IMG/VR virus record: IMGVR_UViG_3300032204_000007
Strand: one strand, 5' to 3'
Length of the DNA stretch: 44,269 bases
Source of the DNA: a virus
A program made the translations under genes and the position numbers. Below are positions 2,699 to 34,140 of this stretch, piece after piece. Each line of letters starts with the position of its first letter. Positions within the stretch are counted from its first letter, which is position 1. The notes beneath the pieces are model-generated. The model was not told the origin of the DNA, did not search any database, and saw nothing but the letters and a program-made list of their open reading frames with translations.

Positions 2699-2911
2699 AT
2701 GCGCAACGAAATCACGATCTGGGGCAATTACCGCCTCATCACCTTTCACACCCGCGTCGCCTGGTGGGTCGCGCCGTACCTCAAGGCCGTGCGCTTCGTT
2801 GCGCTGGCCACCGGCGTGAATCCCGACGTTCGCAAGGTGACGCGCCGAGTTATGCGCGGCATCCGGGATGAGACCTGGGCCGAGACGAAGCGGCGGACGT
2901 TGCGCCGCTGA
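2699..2911 (+). CDS. hypothetical small protein
   Basis: Listed 70-aa ORF starting 1 nt after the upstream stop. It is the last gene before the packaging module. Confidence 0.4.
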   Translation: MRNEITIWGNYRLITFHTRVAWWVAPYLKAVRFVALATGVNPDVRKVTRRVMRGIRDETWAETKRRTLRR

Positions 2912-2997
2912 CCGAGCACCACGCTACGCAGATGCGCACTCTGCCGCTGGCTCCTGCGACACGGGCAACAACCGTAAGAACGGCAAAGGAAACGGAA

Positions 2998-3426
2998 ATG
3001 AGCAACGAAGCAACGCGATTCTCGGCTGACCGCCAACCCACGCGCCGCCGCGGCAAGGATCAGCGCACGAAGATCCTCGAAGCGATCAAGGAGCAGACCA
3101 AGCTCAACGAGAAGGGCTTCTACAAGAAGGTCGCCGAGCGCGCGCTGACCGATGGCGACACGTTGATGATGAAGGAACTGCTCACCCGCGTCGCTCCGGC
3201 CGCAAAGCCCGTCGCACCGTCGGTGCAGTTCGACTTTCCGGAAAACGGAACGCCTGTCGAGCAAGTCGATGCAGTGCTGCGCGCGGTTGCCGCCGGCAAG
3301 GTCTCGCCCGACGTCGGCCAGCAGCTCGTCGCAATCATTCGCGGCAAGCTGGACGTGCTCGAGCTGAGCGAGTTGGCCGACCGCCTGGCAGCCGTCGAGA
3401 AGGCTCTCGAAGCGCAGGGCAAATGA
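2998..3426 (+). CDS. terminase small subunit (DUF5681-like)
   Basis: An internal ATG of ORF 2932..3426 is preceded by aaaggaaacggaa. The N-terminus is basic (RRRGKDQRTK). The stop overlaps the terL start (ATGA). Confidence 0.6.
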   Translation: MSNEATRFSADRQPTRRRGKDQRTKILEAIKEQTKLNEKGFYKKVAERALTDGDTLMMKELLTRVAPAAKPVAPSVQFDFPENGTPVEQVDAVLRAVAAGKVSPDVGQQLVAIIRGKLDVLELSELADRLAAVEKALEAQGK

Positions 3427-22125: not shown

Positions 22126-22773
22126 ATGCAAAACGTCGAGCAGACCATTCTTTCGCAGTATGCGAACAGTCCGACTCTCGTCCAGTTGGTTAAAAACATG
22201 GATGGCTATATCGACCCGAGCGCCGATATTGATGCCTTCTACAACCTGATTTGGAACGTGGACACGGCTGTAGGGATGGGGCTCGACATCTGGGGAAAGA
22301 TCGTCGGGCTGGAGAACGGCCGTAAGCTCATCATCCCGACGACAGAGGTCAACTTCGGCTTTGTCGAAGCCGGCGCCACCAGCGCTGAACCGTTCGACCA
22401 GGGTGTCTTCTACTCGGGCACCCCTGGCACGCAGACCTACGTGCTCCAGGATGCGCCATTCAAGGTGCTGATCCTCGCGAAGGCGATGGCGAACATCACG
22501 GATTGCTCGATCCCGAGCATCAACCAACTGCTGCGGAACCTGTTTTCCGGTCGTGGGCGCTGCTACGTGAACGATCTGGGAAACATGCAGATGCGTTACA
22601 CGTTCGAGTTCTATTTAGAACCGTGGGAAGTCGCAGTCGTTCAGCAGTCCGGAGTTCTGCCGCGTCCGACCGGAGTTCTTGCATCGATGGCGCAGGTTCC
22701 CATCCCGAACGTCTTCGGCTTTGCCGAAGCTGGCGCAAGCGCCGCTCCGTTCGATCAAGGCTCCTTCTACTGA
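22126..22773 (+). CDS. baseplate wedge protein (DUF2612, gpI-like)
   Basis: The N-terminus ILSQYANSPTLVQLVKNMDGYIDP...FYNLIWNVDTAVGMGLDIWGKIVG matches DUF2612 as I recall it. Confidence 0.6.
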   Translation: MQNVEQTILSQYANSPTLVQLVKNMDGYIDPSADIDAFYNLIWNVDTAVGMGLDIWGKIVGLENGRKLIIPTTEVNFGFVEAGATSAEPFDQGVFYSGTPGTQTYVLQDAPFKVLILAKAMANITDCSIPSINQLLRNLFSGRGRCYVNDLGNMQMRYTFEFYLEPWEVAVVQQSGVLPRPTGVLASMAQVPIPNVFGFAEAGASAAPFDQGSFY

Positions 22774-22783
22774 GGAAATTGAC

Positions 22784-24205
22784 ATGCAGTCGACCCAAAC
22801 ACCGACTCTAATCCCGTTGCCGTTCGCGTCGGCGGGCGGCAAGAACACCATCCCCGAGGCGTCGCAGCTTCCCGGCAATCCGGGGGGCGCCTCGTTCACG
22901 GACGGTTTCCCGCCGGCCACGCGCACGCCTCTCGTAGCCGGTGGCATCCCGCCTGCAGGTCTCGACATGAACGGGATTCTGTACATGATCACCCAGTCGA
23001 CGCGCTGGTCGCATGCTGGTGGTCTGTACGGCTTCAGCTCTTCGTTCGCAGCGGATACGAATGTCGGCGGCTACCCGAATGGCGCCGAGCTCATGAGCGC
23101 GGATCTGCAGGGCACGTGGATCAGCAATACCGACAACAACACTGACAACCCGGATACAGGTCCCGGCACGAAGTGGGTGCCCGGCCGCGCATATGGCGTC
23201 ACGGCTCTCTCTGGTTTGACGAATGCCAATGTGACGCTCACGCCCGCGCAGGCTGCCAAGAACAAGATCACGCTTGCGGGGGCACTCACGGGCAACATCC
23301 AGATCATCGTGCCGGCGTGGATTCGAGAATGGTCGTTCGTGAACAACACGACCGGCAATTTCACGATCACGGTCAAGACCGCCAGCGGTACCGGCGTGGT
23401 TCTCGCCGCGGGGCAACAGAAGATCACCGGAGATGGCACGAACATCTTGCAGCCGGCCGAGAGCGTGGCGACTGCCACGTTACCAACGCATGCGATGCAG
23501 TTTGGGCAGGCGACGGGTCGGCTGCTACGGACGACCGTCTATGCAATCGTCAGTGGCCAGCAGCAAATTTCTGTGAACGGCGGTCCCTTCACGACTACCA
23601 GCGCAACCTCATACTCATCGCTGGCAAATTGTGCATTTGTAGAGGTGGAAGGCATTGGTGGTGGTGGCGCCGGAGGCGGTAACGCTGCAACCAGCTCAAC
23701 AGCAGTTTCTGCAGGATCGGGAGGCGCGTCTGGCTCATGGGCAAAATCTAGGGTTGCAGGCCCGCTTACGTCGGTCGCCGTGACGATCGGCTTGGGCGGT
23801 ACAGGAAACTCTGCTGCGGGAGGTAACTCTGGAGGCGCTACTAGCCTAGGTGCGCTGCTCACCTGTCCAGGCGGCGGCGGCGGCGGAGCTGCCTCCATCA
23901 GCACTTCGGTGCCCGTATCATCTGCAAATCAGGGCGCTCCGGGAGCCATGCCAACCGGGACTGGGCTGCTGTACGCGACGAGCGGGCAGCCGGGGACGAA
24001 TGGCCTAATGTTTGGAACAAGTTCCGCCGCGCTCTCAGGTCAAGGGGCACCCTCCCCGTACGGGGCAGGTGGCCCAAATGGCCTTGGCAGTCCTGGTATC
24101 GGCTATGGCTCCGGAGGCAGCGGCGCAGGTGTTGGACCAAGCCAAGCCGCAAATGCAGGAGGAAAGGGGGGAGATGGGTTTCTCATGATTCGGGAGTACG
24201 CATAA
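22784..24205 (+). CDS. tail fibre protein with a C-terminal glycine-rich domain
   Basis: Internal ATG of ORF 22679..24205 with RBS gaggaa. The conserved N-terminus is IPLPFASAGGKNTIP...GGIPPAGLDMNGILY. The C-terminus carries GGGGAGGG...GGGGGG...GGKGGDGFLMIREYA. Confidence 0.75.
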   Translation: MQSTQTPTLIPLPFASAGGKNTIPEASQLPGNPGGASFTDGFPPATRTPLVAGGIPPAGLDMNGILYMITQSTRWSHAGGLYGFSSSFAADTNVGGYPNGAELMSADLQGTWISNTDNNTDNPDTGPGTKWVPGRAYGVTALSGLTNANVTLTPAQAAKNKITLAGALTGNIQIIVPAWIREWSFVNNTTGNFTITVKTASGTGVVLAAGQQKITGDGTNILQPAESVATATLPTHAMQFGQATGRLLRTTVYAIVSGQQQISVNGGPFTTTSATSYSSLANCAFVEVEGIGGGGAGGGNAATSSTAVSAGSGGASGSWAKSRVAGPLTSVAVTIGLGGTGNSAAGGNSGGATSLGALLTCPGGGGGGAASISTSVPVSSANQGAPGAMPTGTGLLYATSGQPGTNGLMFGTSSAALSGQGAPSPYGAGGPNGLGSPGIGYGSGGSGAGVGPSQAANAGGKGGDGFLMIREYA

Positions 24206-27736: not shown

Positions 27737-28807
27737 TCATCGGGTCGGTTTGATCTTGTCGCCACGTCGATTTCGCACGTAGCGCTCGGTCATCACCACC
27801 GACGAGTGGCCGAGCTGCATTTGTGCCTGGCGGATGTCTCCCGCCGAATCGGTCTTGTCCGTGCCGGCCTTGGCGCGCAGGTCGCGGAACTGGAACGCAT
27901 CCTTCTCAACGCCAGCCGCCAGCCGGGCCTTACGGAACCGCGTGCGCAGCGCCCAGACGCCCAGGCGCTCGCCTGATTCGTTGACAACAAGCGCGGTGCT
28001 CACGACCTTGTAACCCTTCTTTCTGGCACGGATGCGCGCGATCACTGCGGCCAGCTCGCCCACCACGGCAATCCGCAGCTTCTTCTTCGTCTTGCCCTGC
28101 TGGATCTCCAGTTCGTTGCTCCCGTTGATGTGGCGTTCGTCGAAGCGCAGCGTATCTGCCGGACGCTGGCCGGTGAGATAGGCCAGGTCCATCGCGTCAC
28201 GCATCGGCTGATCGGCTTCCTTGTACACGGCAGCGAACACATCATCTTCGACGTACACGTCGCGGCCTTCTTCCTCGTTGCGCTTCACGCCGGCACATGG
28301 GTTCGCTGCGCGCGTGAGGCCGGAGTCGCGCGAGTAGTTGAAGATGTGCGAGAACAGTGCCACCTCACGATTGGCGCGCACGTGGCCGGCATCCTGCGGC
28401 GCGGTGCGTCCTTTCTCCGCATACCATTTGCGCGCCTTCTCGGCGCGCCAGCGGAAATAGGCGCGAATGTGCGTTGGCTCGATCTCATCGAGAGGTGCGC
28501 CCTTGAAGAACTCGCGGAGGTTGTCGAGTTCCTTCACGTTGTCGCTGCGCGTGCGTGGCGATTTGGTGGGCAGCACGTCGGCCACATAGCCGTTGGCTGC
28601 CGTGTCGAACGTGACGATGGGCGCCGGCATCGTCTTGGATTTCTCAAGCTCCGACCACTTGCGCACGGCCTCGACGTAATCGGTGCCCAGCGAGAGTTCC
28701 TTCCGCGGCTTGCCGCCCAGATCGTAGAAATAGTAGGTTTTCGCGCCGCGATGGCGAGCGCGCATGCCGGCAGGCAAGTTGGTGTTGCGCGTCGGTTTCC
28801 TGCCCAT
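27737..28807 (-). CDS. int: tyrosine integrase
   Basis: The N-terminus LPAGMRARHRGAKTYYFYDLGGKPRKE is typical of phage integrases. The C-terminus carries FRDLRAKAGTD...LGHSSVVMTERYV (R..H..R..Y catalytic signature). Confidence 0.92.
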   Translation of the reverse strand: MGRKPTRNTNLPAGMRARHRGAKTYYFYDLGGKPRKELSLGTDYVEAVRKWSELEKSKTMPAPIVTFDTAANGYVADVLPTKSPRTRSDNVKELDNLREFFKGAPLDEIEPTHIRAYFRWRAEKARKWYAEKGRTAPQDAGHVRANREVALFSHIFNYSRDSGLTRAANPCAGVKRNEEEGRDVYVEDDVFAAVYKEADQPMRDAMDLAYLTGQRPADTLRFDERHINGSNELEIQQGKTKKKLRIAVVGELAAVIARIRARKKGYKVVSTALVVNESGERLGVWALRTRFRKARLAAGVEKDAFQFRDLRAKAGTDKTDSAGDIRQAQMQLGHSSVVMTERYVRNRRGDKIKPTR

Positions 28808-29190: not shown

Positions 29191-30087
29191 TCATGGGATT
29201 GTTGCCGTTGGGAATCCATCGTGTTGCGCGCCGTCGAGCAGTCGGCCAGCGGCCTTCTTGCCAACCCGCACGGATGAGTCCGTGGCATTCAGTTCAATCG
29301 GCTTATGGTCGTAGGCGCCATCCTGGTGAGCGCCCAGCCATTCGCCCCACTGCTTGAACAGAAAAGGCACATCGCCTGCTTTGCACTGATCGCGCAGGCC
29401 GCGAGCCCAGTCTGGATGCATCGGGCGTGCGCCGGGCCCACTCTCTCCACCAACAATGATCCAGTCCAGCCAGCCCGGCTCGTATTCGTTGCCGCTTACG
29501 TGCAGTAGTTCACCGGTGATGGTGGAGAACACATCCACCGGTCCGAGTAGAGGCTCCATGCTCAGGAATCGCACGCGCGCCGGCACGGCCAGCAGCTTCG
29601 GAATGTCGCGGTCGGCTTCTTTCTGGTTGCAGATCGTGGCGCCGAGCCACACACGACCGTCCCCGATGAGGTCGAATGCCAGGCCGTCGCGCTGCGTGTA
29701 TGAATGCACGTTGCCAATTCGCTTGGTCAGCATCAACCAGTCAAGGTGCGGCGTGTCCGCGATCAACTTGAACAGGTCCATTCGCCATGCGTCCGGCACC
29801 GCGTTGTCGAATACGTCGGCCAAGCTGGCACAGAACACGCGCTGGCGCCGACCATGCTCGGCGAAGAAGTGATCATGGTTGGCGTTCCAGGCGAGTGGCT
29901 TGCGCCAGTTCGCCACGCTGGTGCGCCGGCGCGGAGCGCCCGGCCCCCAGTTGATGGCTGTGCCGCCAGCGAAGCGTGCGTTGCGCGTCTCGGCATAGCA
30001 GTGGTCGCAGCCGGGGCCAACCTTCTGGCAGCCTTCCCACGGGTTGAAGGTGTGATCGGTCCATTCGATCTTGCTGTTCTCGCTCAC
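29191..30087 (-). CDS. phage Gp37/Gp68 family protein (DUF5131)
   Basis: GTG start with RBS aggaggc. The sequences SKIEWTDHTFNPWEGCQKVGPGCDHCYAE and ...WIIVGGESGPGARPMHPDWARGLRDQC...FLFKQWGEW are hallmark DUF5131 blocks. Confidence 0.85.
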   Translation of the reverse strand: MSENSKIEWTDHTFNPWEGCQKVGPGCDHCYAETRNARFAGGTAINWGPGAPRRRTSVANWRKPLAWNANHDHFFAEHGRRQRVFCASLADVFDNAVPDAWRMDLFKLIADTPHLDWLMLTKRIGNVHSYTQRDGLAFDLIGDGRVWLGATICNQKEADRDIPKLLAVPARVRFLSMEPLLGPVDVFSTITGELLHVSGNEYEPGWLDWIIVGGESGPGARPMHPDWARGLRDQCKAGDVPFLFKQWGEWLGAHQDGAYDHKPIELNATDSSVRVGKKAAGRLLDGAQHDGFPTATIP

Positions 30088-30350
30088 GATGCCTCCTTTG
30101 CACGTTTCCGCTTGATAACGGCGACCAAGCCGGCCCGATCGATCTCGACTGCGCCGTGGGCGACAGCCTGCGCGCGCTTTGCCTTGCAGATGTCGTAATG
30201 GCTGTGCGGCGTGCCAGGCTTCTGGTGCCATCGGCGTGCAACACCGATCCGGTCTGCCATCGCATGCAGCTCGTCGTCGGTGTCGGCCACCATGTGGAAC
30301 ATCACCATGCGGCCGAACGGCGCGGCCATGTCATCGACGTAGACGGCCAT
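30084..30350 (-). CDS. DUF4031 domain protein
   Basis: The sequence MAVYVDDMAAPFGRMVMFHMVADTDDELHAMADRIGVARRWHQ...HYDI fits DUF4031 as I recall it. Its stop overlaps the DUF5131 start (GTGA). Its start is 1 nt after the RT stop. Confidence 0.7.
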   Translation of the reverse strand: MAVYVDDMAAPFGRMVMFHMVADTDDELHAMADRIGVARRWHQKPGTPHSHYDICKAKRAQAVAHGAVEIDRAGLVAVIKRKRAKEAS

Positions 30351-30351
30351 G

Positions 30352-31569
30352 TCAGGATTCCTTTGCGGACGAGGCCGCGCGATATGCTTTGGTGAATTGC
30401 TTGTTGATCGCGTGTCCGCGCTTGCGCGCTACGTTCGCAACGCGCGCCCGGTCGGCATGGCTGCCAGTAGCCTGCCGCAGCAGTCCGAAATAGCTGTTGG
30501 CGGCGGCAAAGACCTCCTCGGCGGGCATCTCGCGCAAGCGCTGGATGCCGACGTTGAGCGTTCGCTTGCGGGTGTGGCGCACCCATGGCCGGATGACCTG
30601 GCCCACGAAGTCGATGCCGCGAGAGACCGGCTGCAGGATGGTCTTTTTCGGATTCAGGCGAGCACCCAGACGGGTCGGCAGGAACACCGCGATGGCGTCG
30701 TGTGCCTCGTTGAGCCACTGGGGAGATTCGTGCAGTAGCACGAAATCATCGACGTACCTGATGTAGTGCCGGCAGCGCAGCTCATGCTTGACGAACTGGT
30801 CGAGCTCATTCAGATAGACGTTCGCGAAGAACTGCGACGACAGGTTTCCGATGGGCAGCCCGAGATGCGCGGGCTGTTCCATGAGCCGCTTGTGCGGCGG
30901 CACGCGATCTATCATCCCCGGATCACCAAGGTAGACGAAGTCTTCCCGTGGATCGTGCATCAGCACGAGCTCGGTCAACCCGCGCCAGAACGGCTCGGGG
31001 ATCTTCGAGAGCAGCAGGTCGAGCAAAACGCGCTTGTCGATGCTGACGAAGAAGTTGGCCAGATCGCACTTCAGGTAGTGCGCCGGCTTCGACCAGTTCT
31101 GCGTGATCGAGCGTACCTTTGCGTCGAGGCGCTGGGCGGCGTACAGCGTCCCGCGGCCTTTGATACATGCGCACGAGTCGGCGATGAATGAGCGTTCGAA
31201 GCGCGGTCCGATTCGGTTGTACAACAGGTGGTGCACGATACGGTCGCGGAATTCCGCCGCCCATACCTCGCGGTGCTTCGGTCTGTCGATGACGAAGCAC
31301 TTCGAGCGCCCAGGGACATAGCTGTCGTCGAGCAGCTTGGCGTTCAGGTGAACGAGGTTGCGCTCCAGGTTGGCCTCGAAGGCGAGAGCGCTGGCCGTGT
31401 TGCGTTTCGTGCGCCGGCAGTCGCGGTAAGCCTTGACTAGCTCGGCGCCCGTGAAGCCTTCCGATTCTTTCCAATCTGCGGACAGCGACCGCGCGGAGCG
31501 CGGCGCTCTTGCGGTTGTTGTTCTGGTTGCCGTTGTTGAAGTTCTGGTACCAGGCGTAAGCGGAACCAT
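30352..31569 (-). CDS. DGR-type reverse transcriptase (5' boundary uncertain)
   Basis: RT motifs are present: REVWAAEFRDRIVHH, YLKCDLANFF, the DGR-diagnostic LPIGNLSSQFFANVYLNELD, and YIRYVDDFVLL. The conserved core begins near 31450. The ORF stays open to 31752, and the first in-frame ATG upstream of the core is at 31569, so the TR would lie inside the 5' end. Confidence 0.88.
   Translation of the reverse strand: MVPLTPGTRTSTTATRTTTARAPRSARSLSADWKESEGFTGAELVKAYRDCRRTKRNTASALAFEANLERNLVHLNAKLLDDSYVPGRSKCFVIDRPKHREVWAAEFRDRIVHHLLYNRIGPRFERSFIADSCACIKGRGTLYAAQRLDAKVRSITQNWSKPAHYLKCDLANFFVSIDKRVLLDLLLSKIPEPFWRGLTELVLMHDPREDFVYLGDPGMIDRVPPHKRLMEQPAHLGLPIGNLSSQFFANVYLNELDQFVKHELRCRHYIRYVDDFVLLHESPQWLNEAHDAIAVFLPTRLGARLNPKKTILQPVSRGIDFVGQVIRPWVRHTRKRTLNVGIQRLREMPAEEVFAAANSYFGLLRQATGSHADRARVANVARKRGHAINKQFTKAYRAASSAKES
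31473..31564 (-). repeat. DGR template repeat (TR)
   Basis: The 92-nt segment matches 32117-32208 and 32657-32747. In the sense strand (target frame) it reads SAYAWYQNFNNGNQNNNRKSAALRAVAVRR, with seven AAC codons. It lies between avd and the RT core. Confidence 0.9.
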
Positions 31570-31705
31570 CGTGCTATCTACGTCGCCCGGCCGATTGCTC
31601 AGCGGGGAAACTGCGCCGGACGCTGCCCGGCTGCTGCCGGAGGTATCCGTGGTGCGCATGGCGGTGGCCTTATGAGCCAGCGGCACGACCAGATTGAAAC
31701 GACGC

Positions 31706-32083
31706 TCAGTCATGGCGGCCTTGACCTCCATGAAGCGGGCGCTTGGCTGCATACTTCTTCCACGCCGTGGCCTGTTTGCTGATGCTCTCTGTCAACTGCG
31801 TGACGCCCCAATACTGCTTGGGGGAGATCTTCTGCATATCCAACGAGAGACGCAGCAGCAGCTCAACGAGCTTCACCTTTTCGACCATGAGAGAAAGATG
31901 CGGCACCTTGTCATCGGCAACGTTCGCTCGATAGACCAGGATCAGCAACTTCGAAGACTCGCGCACGATCTCTTCGCCGATCAGGTGCTTGAACGCGCGT
32001 TCCATGTTGGCGACGATCTTCGTCACCTTGCCGAACAGGTCGTAGCCTGTCTTATAGACATCGAGCTCAGTGTGGAGAGCCAT
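31706..32083 (-). CDS. avd: accessory variability determinant (Avd-like four-helix bundle protein)
   Basis: 125 aa, helical, with a basic C-terminus (WKKYAAKRP). It resembles the 23S rRNA-IVS/four-helix-bundle family and sits in the canonical position between the target gene and the TR. Confidence 0.75.
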   Translation of the reverse strand: MALHTELDVYKTGYDLFGKVTKIVANMERAFKHLIGEEIVRESSKLLILVYRANVADDKVPHLSLMVEKVKLVELLLRLSLDMQKISPKQYWGVTQLTESISKQATAWKKYAAKRPLHGGQGRHD

Positions 32084-32097
32084 GGCGTATCAAATGA

Positions 32098-32586
32098 TCA
32101 AATTACGGAAGGAATGAATCTGCGGACAGCGACCGCGCGGAGCGCGGCGCTCTTGCGGTAGTCGTCCTGGCCGCCGTCGAGGAAGTCCTGGCCCCAGGCG
32201 GAAGCGGAGTTCGTCTCGTAGTCCTCTTCCAGCCAATGCGCAACCTTGGCGAATTCGTCGCCCAAGTTCGCCATCAGAAGGCGCCCCTCGCGGCGATTGG
32301 GCAACTTGCCACCACGGCCGGCGGCATACGCTAGGGCATTGGAGTGGCTGAGATCGCCACCATCACCTGGCAGCTTGATCAGGTAATAGTCGAGCGTGCC
32401 CTCTTCCTTGTAGATCGGGCCGGCGAGGCGTTCGCCAGGCGCCAACGGGATCGTGACAGCATCCACGCGGTATTCCGTGGCACGCGGCTGTTCCTTGAAC
32501 TGTTTGATCAGCTCGCCGATGCGCGCGTGATCTGCCTCAATCCGTGCATGCTCGGCTTCGATGTGTTCCAAGGTGACTGCGGTCAT
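32098..32586 (-). CDS. DGR target protein 1 (DUF1566/C-type lectin-like C-terminus; no signal peptide)
   Basis: RBS aggagc. The C-terminus ...SASAWGQDFLDGGQDDYRKSAALRAVAVRRFIPSVI is encoded by VR1. The segment NALAYAAGRGGKLPNRREGRLLMANL is DUF1566-like. Confidence 0.85.
   Translation of the reverse strand: MTAVTLEHIEAEHARIEADHARIGELIKQFKEQPRATEYRVDAVTIPLAPGERLAGPIYKEEGTLDYYLIKLPGDGGDLSHSNALAYAAGRGGKLPNRREGRLLMANLGDEFAKVAHWLEEDYETNSASAWGQDFLDGGQDDYRKSAALRAVAVRRFIPSVI
32117..32208 (-). repeat. DGR variable repeat 1 (VR1)
   Basis: Manual alignment to the TR gives 12 mismatches in 92 nt. Eleven fall at TR adenines (T on the plus strand). The 42 nt at the 3' (sense) end are identical to the TR. 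Confidence 0.9.
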
Positions 32587-32646
32587 TTGATGCTCCTGCA
32601 GAGATGAAAGGGATGGGTGGTTCAGCTCAGTGAATGAGGGAATGGG

Positions 32647-33006
32647 TCAATTTTTGAATCTGCGGACAGCGACCGCGCGGCGCGCGGCGCTCTTGCGGCC
32701 GTAGCGCTGGTTGCCGTCGCCGAAGTACTGGTACCAGGCGCAAGCGGTGTCCCACTCAACATCCTCATCAGTCCAGTACAGATCAGGCTTCACGAGGTCG
32801 CGTTGCTCGTTGTAGATGAAGATGGCTTCGACGCGGTTCATCAGCACGCCGCCGACGCTCTTGGCCCATTCGCGCTGCTTCTCGCGCGGGAGTTCCTCGT
32901 CATTGACGGCGACGATCACGGTGTGCTCGATCTCGCCGTTCTTATCGATGCGGCCATAGAGATAGGTTTCGCCTTCAGCAAGCGGCGGAATTTGGATCTG
33001 TTGCAT
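32647..33006 (-). CDS. DGR target protein 2 (DUF1566/C-type lectin-like C-terminus; no signal peptide)
   Basis: RBS aggagt. The C-terminus ...TACAWYQYFGDGNQRYGRKSAARRAVAVRRFKN is encoded by VR2. The segment WAKSVGGVLMNRVEAIFIY is DUF1566-like. Confidence 0.85.
   Translation of the reverse strand: MQQIQIPPLAEGETYLYGRIDKNGEIEHTVIVAVNDEELPREKQREWAKSVGGVLMNRVEAIFIYNEQRDLVKPDLYWTDEDVEWDTACAWYQYFGDGNQRYGRKSAARRAVAVRRFKN
32657..32747 (-). repeat. DGR variable repeat 2 (VR2)
   Basis: Manual alignment to the TR gives 10 mismatches at TR adenines in the variable part, plus one T-to-G (sense) change in the GC-rich 3' block. Confidence 0.9.
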
Positions 33007-33031
33007 GGTTACTCCTGATGGTTGGGAAAAA

Positions 33032-33421
33032 TCATTGAATCCAGGTGGCCTCAGCGGCCCGATGCGGACGCCAGTTGCGCGCCCATTTCGCGTGGGCCTT
33101 ATCGATGTCGTCTTTCATCTCGGCTTCAATCGGATCGGCTCGCAGCACTTCCAGCTCGGGCTGCTCGGGCCCGTATCGCCAGACGTCGACGAACGCACGC
33201 TTGGTTCCCTTCGGACGCCCTCGGTGCGCCTCATCACGCGCGCGCAGCGCGTGCAGGTGGATCAGGCACGTGGTGCGCGTGAAGCCGGTCCACTCGGCCA
33301 GCTCGGCAGTGGTGCAGCCACGTTCTCCGGCAGCCAGGAGGGCGACGATGATCTTTTGCGAGTTGCGCTCGCCGCGCCGCTTGCCGCCGTTGACGATGTT
33401 TTGCAAGTTCAGGTGAGCCAT
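33032..33421 (-). CDS. winged-helix DNA-binding protein
   Basis: The segment IIVALLAAGERGCTTAELAEWTGFTRTTCLIHLHALRA is wHTH-like. Confidence 0.5.
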   Translation of the reverse strand: MAHLNLQNIVNGGKRRGERNSQKIIVALLAAGERGCTTAELAEWTGFTRTTCLIHLHALRARDEAHRGRPKGTKRAFVDVWRYGPEQPELEVLRADPIEAEMKDDIDKAHAKWARNWRPHRAAEATWIQ

Positions 33422-33492
33422 GGCCGTGCTCGATGCGGTGGAAAAAGAGGGCGGCGCCGACGGGGAGCGTGCCGCCCAAACGAGCGGGACCG

Positions 33493-34140
33493 TTACGCCT
33501 CGATGCGCGTGTCGTCCTGGGCGAGATCGGAGTTGGCGAATGGGTCATCGCTGCCGCCTTTCTTCTCGGCGGCGGTCTTCTTGGGGGTGCCCTTGACGTC
33601 GGCCGGCTTGAGTTCCTGCTGCTTCTCTTCTGGCGCGATCAGACTGATCTCGACTTCGGTCTGGGCCATGTGGTCGATGCGGCCCTGCACTTCGGCGCCC
33701 GGCTTCGAGTAGGCGCTGAACAAGACAGTCACCGTGCCGCCCGGTTGGAGGTTCACGGCAAAGTCGGACAGCTCCACCTCGGCCAGCCGGATCTCCGACG
33801 CCTCGCTGGCGCCGCAGTGGTAGGTGAGGCGGTAGCCGGCCATTTCCTTGGTGAGCTTCAGCGGCATGTTGACCAGCGGAAGCTTGCGCTGGGTGAGGTC
33901 GACATCCTGGCGCGGCAGCGACATCTCGTCCTGACCCCTCTCGTTGGTCTGCGTCTTGCCGTTGTCTTTCTCGTAGAAAGCCTTGCGCAGACCCGGCTCC
34001 AGCACATCGAGCACCGTGTTGTCGGTCTGGTATTCGAACTTCACACTGCACGCGTGCTCGCGCTTGTCGCCCTTGAACTCGGCAACGTTGGTCACGCTGC
34101 GGACCTTCACGAGCTTCTGCTCGATCTCGAACATCTTCAT
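33493..34140 (-). CDS. hypothetical early protein
   Basis: Listed 215-aa ORF in the same orientation as the operon. No motif recognised. Confidence 0.5.
   Translation of the reverse strand: MKMFEIEQKLVKVRSVTNVAEFKGDKREHACSVKFEYQTDNTVLDVLEPGLRKAFYEKDNGKTQTNERGQDEMSLPRQDVDLTQRKLPLVNMPLKLTKEMAGYRLTYHCGASEASEIRLAEVELSDFAVNLQPGGTVTVLFSAYSKPGAEVQGRIDHMAQTEVEISLIAPEEKQQELKPADVKGTPKKTAAEKKGGSDDPFANSDLAQDDTRIEA

Follow-up and report, generated by a model that had tools for sequence, protein, structure and literature searches.

The DNA analysed here is a 44,269-nucleotide (nt) viral sequence, IMG/VR record IMGVR_UViG_3300032204_000007, which we refer to as the window. Between positions 30,352 and 33,006 its minus strand carries a diversity-generating retroelement (DGR) made up of two target genes, the accessory gene avd, a template repeat (TR) and a reverse transcriptase (RT) gene, with a variable repeat (VR1, VR2) at the 3′ end of each target gene. 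An initial annotation, made from the letters of the window, had described a complete DGR with the order target 2, target 1, avd, TR, RT, and every part is present as stated (Table 1). That interpretation is supported by our analysis, and none of the tests it proposed for its own refutation overturned it; we are close to certain that the locus is an active DGR. What appears to be new is the architecture of the DGR RNA, which the element has in common with its clade: an orphan RNA motif upstream of the TR, the lack of a downstream spacer, a TR that lies within the RT reading frame, and a covarying helix that joins motif and template.

Table 1. Features of the DGR and of the adjoining genes. Positions are those of the window.
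Feature	Position	Strand	Description
Target gene 2	32647-33006	minus	119 aa; stand-alone DUF1566/Lcl_C-like protein, C-type-lectin fold (predicted)
VR2	32748-32657	minus	3′ end of target gene 2
Target gene 1	32098-32586	minus	162 aa; N-terminal helix (residues 6-32), then C-type-lectin-fold domain (predicted)
VR1	32208-32117	minus	3′ end of target gene 1
avd	31706-32083	minus	125 aa; accessory four-helix-bundle protein; PHROG 3206
RT-15 RNA (Rfam RF03018)	31562-31744	minus	183 nt; last 39 nt of avd to first TR bases
RT-15 stem-loop P1	31742-31703	minus	Long stem-loop, followed by a short linker
Proposed primer strand	31699-31690	minus	5′-UUUCAAUCUG-3′, in the RT-15 linker NNNAAUCUG; would pair with the TR 3′ boundary
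RT-15 outer helix, 5′ strand	31688-31683	minus	UCGUGC; one nt after the primer strand; pairs with 31574-31569
RT-15 outer helix, 3′ strand	31574-31569	minus	GCACGA; 4 nt upstream of the TR 5′ end
TR	31564-31473	minus	92 nt, AAC-rich, 23 adenines; within the RT reading frame, frame +1 relative to the target frame
Proposed template strand	31478-31470	minus	5′-CAGAUUGGA-3′, at the TR 3′ boundary CAGAUUNNN
DGR reverse transcriptase	30352-31569	minus	Conserved core from 31449; 8ub7 match, PHROG 1423
DUF4031	30084-30350	minus	ATG 1 nt past the RT stop codon
DUF5131 (phage Gp37/Gp68 family)	29191-30231	minus	Follows DUF4031

The repeats were delimited by an ungapped alignment anchored on the 3′ block that they share, CGCAAGAGCGCCGCGC, with the minus strand read over 29800-33600. 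This alignment confirmed that the 92-nt TR recurs at the 3′ ends of two adjacent open reading frames (ORFs), and it showed mismatches that are adenine-specific and not spread evenly over the four TR bases. VR1 departs from the TR at 12 positions, 11 of which are TR adenines and the last a T>G at TR 31549 (hypergeometric P = 2.6e-7, a test that assumes, as does that for VR2, 23 adenines in the 92-nt TR); these counts reproduce those of the initial annotation. For VR2, ten of 12 mismatches over 92 nt fall at adenines (P = 7.7e-6) and the others are a T>A at the 5′ edge (31564) and a T>G at TR 31497, opposite which VR2 has G32681; the earlier count of ten adenine sites and one other is exact over the 91-nt span for which it was given. 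In each target gene, the final ~50 variable nucleotides are a copy of the TR mutagenised at adenines. Of the 23 adenines in the TR, 16 are changed in one VR allele or more. Translated in the target frame, the TR gives SAYAWYQNFNNGNQNNNRKSAALRAVAVRR, which begins SAYAWYQNFNNGNQNNNRK, in keeping with the AAC-rich reading reported before. Its final 42 nt (31514-31473), described as GC-rich and essentially invariant, are indeed identical in VR1 and differ by a single change in VR2. Three copies of a 20-nt core of this block are present in the window, where 0.01 would be expected, and no fourth TR/VR copy was found in the window either by blastn-short with the TR or by a three-mismatch search with the invariant core. 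The GC-rich block includes a 10-bp hairpin in the TR, VR1 and VR2; considered as a cruciform signal, it has an energy indistinguishable from that of shuffled sequences in all three copies (z -0.9 to -1.6), and the VR2 T>G falls in its loop. Judging from the sequence, VR2 has been diversified in the past.

The interval between avd and the TR is not plain spacer but a structured RNA, which the initial annotation had missed. A cmscan search identifies it as RT-15 at full length (model positions 1-192), with a score of 171.9 bits against a gathering threshold of 82 and E = 8e-43. RT-15 was found in all 51 loci of the clade to which this DGR belongs, 50 of them with nhmmer and the remaining one (L041) with Rfam. 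In the loci placed by nhmmer its 3′ end lies 102-193 nt, and in all but one of them 102-156 nt, before the conserved start of the RT, leaving room for the TR. RNAalifold applied to 48 clade sequences gave 48 RT-15 base pairs, 30 of them with compensatory changes; such changes affect three of the six pairs of the outer helix, between whose strands stem-loops P3-P5 are located. Weinberg et al. 2017 (PMC5737381) presented RT-1 to RT-19 as motifs close to RT genes, linked only RT-10 with a DGR, as the region between TR and brt in phage BPP-1, and speculated that other RT motifs might work in DGRs. RT-15 has been published only as lying near RT genes, whereas our data locate it between avd and the TR and show that it covaries with the 3′ end of the TR. 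In the literature that we searched we found neither a published link between RT-15 and DGRs nor a permuted DGR RNA, an absence that holds for that library only. An orphan Rfam motif gains a functional home in this way, as the RNA next to the TR in at least 51 DGRs of one clade.

In 16 distant DGR loci, with RTs of 40-48% identity, the TR likewise adjoins the RT, but no Rfam motif reaches its gathering score, and RT-15 was absent from the more distant loci tested; extension of the upstream scaffold beyond the RT-15 clade is not supported, since these loci are without a motif at gathering score. Distant loci whose TR ends a few tens of nt from the RT start (L055, L061, L063, L065, L067 and L081, for example) are found among L052-L086, a set with loci from the candidate phyla radiation, Elusimicrobiota, Nitrospirota and others. 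Distant loci in which the TR adjoins the RT may hold undescribed upstream DGR RNAs.

The RT had been called as a 466-aa ORF starting at 31752, which is a miscall: similarity to the BPP-1 RT (bRT) begins only at 31449, and the call is over-extended through RT-15. We considered and rejected the open frame through RT-15 as a conserved protein. The stretch is conserved as RNA and not as protein, because it shows compensatory changes and because the RT frame of phage Haboob gives a different peptide there. Throughout the RT-15 clade the TR overlaps the 5′ part of the RT frame, in another frame than the one used in the targets, and the RT frame stays open across the entire TR in all seven sequences examined in detail. 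The only in-frame ATG of the window that is neither deep in RT-15 nor within the conserved core is that at 31569, the A of which is the last A of the 3′ strand of the RT-15 outer helix, and assignment of the RT start to this codon is uncertain. Among the relatives, the nearest in-frame ATG lies inside the TR in at least 18 loci, follows the TR in a few and is absent in 11; in the window and its closest relatives it sits in the 3′ tail of RT-15, and the window RT lacks the ATG within the TR that phages Magia, QDWS, E192a, Cruim01 and LPPA56 have.

A long-range pairing connects RT-15 with the 3′ end of the TR. The linker that follows stem-loop P1 is conserved and single-stranded, and over 7-10 nt it is complementary to the TR 3′ boundary in nearly every locus; in the window the helix would comprise 10 bp, including one G.U pair. 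Its template strand consists of the last 6 nt of TR/VR homology and 3 TR-specific nt, and the next template base on the 5′ side is G31479. In an anchored alignment of 48 distinct sequences, scored over a 9-bp helix, 88.2% of cells are canonical against 77.3 ± 1.1 in column shuffles (0/500), and 50 cells are changed on both sides against 18.1 ± 3.1 (0/500), statistics that overstate independence as the sequences are phylogenetically related. The covariation score is 0.299, compared with 0.102 for the control. When the partners are slid by 1-3 columns, canonical pairing is 24-44%, and this control supports the helix because it retains the relatedness of the sequences. The seventh pair, formed by the first nt past TR/VR homology, is GC in 21 sequences, UA in 14, CG in nine, AU in three and UG in one, with none unpaired, and locus L031 has a compensatory U>C / A>G exchange inside the otherwise invariant helix core. 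The pairing is also specific for the TR: positions 7, 8 and 9 pair in 47, 38 and 33 of 47 cases for the TR, as against 23, 27 and 5 of 47 for the VR flanks. At position 6 the VR flank keeps a T and would pair with RT-15 in 46 of 47. AAUCUG, a hexamer of RT-15, is exactly complementary to the VR 3′ end, and we speculate that this might matter for the homing of RNA-linked cDNA.

The arrangement invites comparison with the BPP-1 ribonucleoprotein (RNP), in which a structured RNA element, Sp, follows the TR. In the cryo-EM structures (10.1101/2023.10.23.563531), TR 117-129 and Sp 47-56 form the template:primer duplex, Sp A56 is the priming nucleotide and G117 the first template base; two nt further on, Sp 59-70 pairs with a segment of avd just upstream of the TR, forming the ‘cPRT Stop’. 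An Avd-binding stem-loop (Sp 3-33) lies 5′ of the primer strand, and stem-loops 3′ of the stop strand bind bRT. The elements of RT-15 are ordered like those of Sp: stem-loop, linker, primer strand, one nt, stop strand, stem-loops. We propose that a single RNA containing the 3′ end of avd, RT-15 and the TR would be bound by RT and Avd, and that the RT-15 linker would pair with the TR 3′ boundary so as to set G31690 beside template base G31479. cDNA synthesis would then be primed in cis by a nucleotide inside RT-15, either G31690 or one beside it, which we liken to Sp A56. Because the 3′ end of G31690 would abut G31479, extension would copy the TR toward its 5′ end, 3′ to 5′ along the template and with misincorporation opposite adenines, and would meet the outer helix where homology stops; synthesis would halt at this helix, just upstream of the TR. 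The cDNA would finally replace VR1, with the invariant GC-rich 42-nt 3′ block as a homing signal. Because the module sits 5′ of the TR and not 3′, the RT ORF can adjoin and overlap the TR: with no need of a downstream spacer, the TR may have been absorbed into the RT reading frame, and one stretch of RNA would serve as a mutagenesis template in one frame and encode the RT N-terminus in another. Based on the covariation and on one solved system, we give this upstream, permuted form of cis-priming somewhat better than even chances. That RT-15 is the DGR RNA scaffold of a large clade of proteobacterial phage DGRs, and amounts to a circularly permuted version of the BPP-1 DGR RNA, we hold to be slightly more probable than the contrary.

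The most serious alternative is an ordinary DGR of the BPP-1 style: downstream of the TR, the 5′ coding sequence of the RT would contain the priming RNA, and RT-15 would be a mere 5′ leader or regulator, acting for instance on translation of the RT or on how stable the avd 3′ end is. RT-15 does lie directly upstream of the RT frame, its 3′ tail has the only usable ATG in the window, and Handa et al., who surveyed 278 Avd-containing DGRs, reported 207 with stem-loops shortly downstream of the TR. At this locus, however, there is little room for such an element and no sign of its conservation. About 24 nt separate the end of the TR (31473) from the first residue aligned with bRT (31449), and relatives have little more. 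RNAalifold found no conserved pairs in the 160 nt after the TR among 52 sequences, equal to four control RT segments. Codon entropy at conserved residues of 52 RT genes is depressed in the first 15 codons alone, which correspond to the TR 3′ end (0.5, compared with a mean of 1.25); downstream of the TR, variation at synonymous sites is normal (1.2-1.3 for the same mean). An Sp-like element in the RT 5′ coding region was accordingly rejected, with no pairs between -31 and +160 relative to the RT core. The Rfam model of the BPP-1-type RNA, Phage_DGR (RF03022), has no match at E ≤ 1 within 29500-34000; BPP-1 itself, scanned for this model, scores 104.7 bits at 2750-2882, between its TR (2887-3020) and brt. 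Covariation of the RT-15 linker with the TR 3′ end, moreover, is something that a pure translation leader would not need. On balance we consider a downstream priming RNA unlikely. The upstream, permuted arrangement, if true, would explain part of those Avd-containing DGRs that have no downstream stem-loop, and it could lead to better DGR finders, which presume a non-coding TR and disregard flanking RNA.

Activity of the element in nature can be read from public assemblies. We located contigs of the same phage through protein clusters at 90% identity (22-23 members, for both targets) and compared their DNA base by base. An independent metagenome contig of 44,310 nt (ENA ERZ27248786 k119_53971; L087) aligns without gaps to window 36586-28098. 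Over these 8,489 nt the two differ at 15 positions, all of which lie in VR1 (32159-32201) and 14 of which are TR-adenine positions; the remaining one, 32193, is G in the window and T in L087 as well as in the TR. A third VR1 allele, on JGI contigs L088 (3300081878) and L089 (3300081839), differs from the window at 11 positions, ten at TR adenines plus 32193. Compared with the TR, the alleles of L087 and L088 are changed at adenines only (7/7 and 11/11), and when the window, L087 and L088 alleles are compared among themselves the differences fall at TR-adenine positions and at 32193. The T>G at 32193 is private to the window VR1 and is either a rare non-adenine misincorporation or an ordinary point mutation after homing. 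Among proteins, the commonest form of the VR1 target (P0211, on 294 contigs) departs from that of the window inside the VR only. With three VR1 alleles in phage DNA that is elsewhere identical, the assemblies amount to a natural before-and-after experiment; they are direct evidence that VR1 undergoes mutagenic retrohoming in nature and show the element at work in the environment. The second target behaves differently. The window encodes a VR2-target protein (P0224) that recurs unchanged on 360 contigs, VR2 is the same in the window and L087, and no variation in VR2 was seen among the public assemblies. Polymorphism confined to TR adenines across independent assemblies, which had been suggested as a check for both repeats, is borne out for VR1 and was not seen for VR2, and shows that one target of the two, VR1, is currently being rewritten.

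These observations bear on the possibility that the locus is a decayed or inactive remnant whose VR/TR differences are fossils. The invariance of VR2, its non-adenine change in the 3′ block and the single non-adenine change in the window VR1 are what a remnant might show, but all ORFs are intact and the three VR1 alleles differ at TR adenines with no differences outside VR1. Decay is contradicted for VR1, and for the locus we regard it as very improbable. Still less credible is the view that the RT is of retron, Abi/DRT or group II intron type and stands beside paralogous genes whose repeats reflect duplication: relatives are often annotated as ‘retron-type RT’ and NCBIfam returns sub-threshold group II, retron and DRT matches, but these are far under their cut-offs (78.8 against 300 bits, for example), among solved structures bRT matches better than any other by 27 orders of magnitude, and the third repeat encodes no target, is AAC-rich and differs from the VRs almost only at adenines.

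The RT itself, read from ATG 31569, has the Bordetella phage DGR RT (8ub7) as its best solved-structure match (E = 3.5e-36), with group II, retron and other RT chains at about 1e-9 or weaker; it matches PHROG 1423 at 1.6e-110 and contains YVDD and IGNLSSQ, the latter conforming to DGR motif 4, [I/L/V]GxxxSQ. NCBIfam has no model that would name it as a DGR RT. The structure-match scores bear out the earlier identification of a DGR-type RT with the IGNLSSQ motif and speak against a retron, Abi or group II affiliation, and we place the enzyme in the DGR class by similarity scores and motifs. The Avd-like protein that had been recognized between target and TR matches PHROG 3206, ‘Avd protein of DGR’, at 3.3e-22.

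As a whole, the best explanation of these data, which we regard as very probable, is a complete, functioning DGR, with an RNA that may be permuted, in a temperate myovirus of a betaproteobacterium. Several observations, along with the silence of VR2, weigh on the other side. RT-15 and the BPP-1 Sp share no primary-sequence similarity; helix position 6 is often an A.C mismatch; and where priming and stopping would occur, and which contacts the RNP would make, is read from covariation and by analogy with one solved system. A conserved RT start codon was rejected, as its position differs among loci. Avd falls below curated cut-offs, with 36 against 40 bits for Pfam bAvd (1e-8) and 39.7 against 80 bits for NCBIfam DivGenRetAVD (5e-10).

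The two target proteins appear to be distant relatives of the DUF1566/Lcl_C family (PF07603), the gathering threshold of which neither reaches. The 119-aa protein has a weak Pfam Lcl_C match (residues 73-115, E = 0.0017, 19 bits against 34.9), and the 162-aa protein has no Pfam match. Some of their homologues carry PF07603, and most are named ‘DUF1566 domain-containing protein’ by NCBI; those so named are mostly in Ralstonia, Burkholderia and Paraburkholderia. Single-sequence searches of the PDB with Avd and the targets gave nothing useful and a profile search gave a marginal Lcl match only, so that a fold search was needed. The AlphaFold2 model of the 162-aa protein, built on a 73-sequence alignment, has a mean predicted local distance difference test score (pLDDT) of 93.8 and shows the N-terminal helix, which predicts oligomerisation, and a compact alpha/beta domain. 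The top PDB matches of this domain in Foldseek are the C-terminal domain of Legionella Lcl (8q4e, E = 1.6e-4), Bd2740, intimin and C-type lectins; Bd2740 is a Bdellovibrio protein, and viral DUF1566 proteins are matched as well. The match to 8q4e supports a distant relationship to Lcl_C/DUF1566, and the VR1 target is predicted to have a C-type-lectin fold of this type with the VR at its C-terminus. Inspection of the two target sequences shows no signal or lipobox at the N-terminus, and both proteins look cytoplasmic.

The window comprises essentially the whole of a temperate myovirus of roughly 44 kb. Terminase, portal, protease, major head protein, sheath, tape measure and baseplate genes and a tail-fibre gene (22679-24205) are on the plus strand; the minus strand carries an integrase (27737-28807), followed by DUF5131, DUF4031, the DGR and recombination/exonuclease genes. 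The DGR is part of an early/lysogeny operon about 8 kb from the tail-fibre gene, in which there is no VR. Small lectin-fold targets without a signal peptide, encoded in an early operon and not in the tail module, raise the question of what a temperate phage diversifies. The nearest relatives of the phage's proteins are in Ralstonia, Cupriavidus and Burkholderia, suggesting that it infects a betaproteobacterium. DUF4031 and DUF5131 are not part of the conserved cassette, because the relatives have DNA methyltransferases, an HNH endonuclease or unknown genes in their place. Directly upstream of the targets, a 129-aa ORF (33032-33421, minus) with no family match takes the position of the Magia ‘transcriptional regulator’, and farther upstream is an acidic 215-aa ORF (33493-34140, minus) with no Pfam or PHROG match. 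The same phage is found in many public assemblies, often on contigs of 20-50 kb, and either is very widespread or recurs as a contaminant or as the prophage of a strain that is often sequenced. In L088 and L089, a deletion of ~2.5 kb fuses window 35016 to 32518. The VR2 target and the ORFs of 129 and 215 aa are lost, and the VR1 target, shortened by 40 residues at its N-terminus, takes 122-aa forms (P0210, P0212, P0220); VR1 is still a distinct, adenine-mutagenised allele.

As a DGR, the locus joins a clade that, by its sequence relationships, is already present, though under-annotated, in GenBank phages. A tblastn search of these phages recovered this RT, with identities of 61-74%, in Burkholderia phages Magia, vB_E192a and vB_PL1, ‘Shewanella’ phage QDWS, and Pseudomonas phages Cruim01, Haboob, LPPA56, phPA-G and SC_8_H2H8_2017. 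All six of the phage loci fetched contain the same cassette with two adenine-biased VRs; in Magia, QDWS and E192a the TRs are almost identical and the VRs differ at TR-adenine sites. The RTs of GenBank relatives are often labelled ‘retron-type RT’. A scan of GTDB, with one genome per species, added 45 proteobacterial loci at RT identities of at least 60% (Burkholderiales, Pseudomonas, Gallionellaceae and others), the best match being Cupriavidus pauculus at 76%; in all 45 the TR adjoins the RT, with 1-3 VRs upstream. Two records, OK094664.1 (‘Shewanella phage vB_Sb_QDWS’) and OP650936.1 (‘Hujiaoplasma phage zrk29-1’), are both 47,902 bp long, give identical scores and are assigned unrelated hosts (Shewanella; Tenericutes), though they are near Burkholderia phages with DGR cassettes of about 62% GC-like composition; the host attribution of at least one of them looks doubtful.

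Magia and its relatives have the same series as the window, namely a target of 119-121 aa, a target of 155-162 aa, avd, RT-15, TR and RT, and their cassettes likewise stand beside an integrase in a temperate phage. The announcement of the Magia genome (PMC7883833) mentions a ‘potential DGR’ and gives genes 47 and 57 as its targets, and overlooks gene 46, which is the homologue of the window's VR1 target. A remote third VR like that claimed for Magia gene 57 is rejected for the window, where our searches turned up no copy beyond the three already described. A misc_RNA named ‘RT-15’ appears in the Cruim01 annotation, placed between avd and RT as it is here, and none of the records of the Magia-group phages ties RT-15 to the TR. 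With respect to its targets, the element resembles the ‘CLec2 / category d’ DGRs of Wu et al. 2018 (PMC5758913), whose targets are DUF1566 proteins, about half of them short and DUF1566-only; DGRs with two targets made up ~13% in that study. The DGR of Legionella pneumophila also has its VR in a lectin fold of the DUF1566/Lcl_C type. The Legionella target LdtA is a surface lipoprotein, however, while both targets here are phage-encoded and, by inspection, free of a signal or lipobox.

The closest mechanistic comparison is with BPP-1 (mtd-avd-TR-Sp-brt; RF03022, RNP structures 8ub7-8ube). Both systems have an RT of the same class together with Avd, a TR right after avd, a C-terminal VR in a target of C-type-lectin fold, adenine mutagenesis and an invariant GC-rich 3′ block. 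The template:primer duplex proposed for the TR 3′ end, which has ~9-10 bp and in which the first base of the template is G, would be a further likeness, as would a stop duplex just upstream of the TR, for which 31569-31574 is a candidate analogue of the cPRT Stop. The differences concern the targets and the RNA. BPP-1 diversifies Mtd, a tail-fibre tip protein encoded in the structural module, whereas the window has two small DUF1566-like proteins of an early operon. BPP-1 has a structured Sp of 144 nt between TR and brt, and the window, which lacks both a Phage_DGR match and conserved structure downstream of the TR, does not have an RNA of the BPP-1 type. In BPP-1 the first stop strand and the TR precede the module of stem-loop, primer strand, second stop strand and stem-loops; here the two modules would be swapped. 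If this is correct, the architecture of the RNP is conserved and the connectivity of its RNA permuted, with the duplex, the stop and the stem-loops supplied from the other side of the TR.

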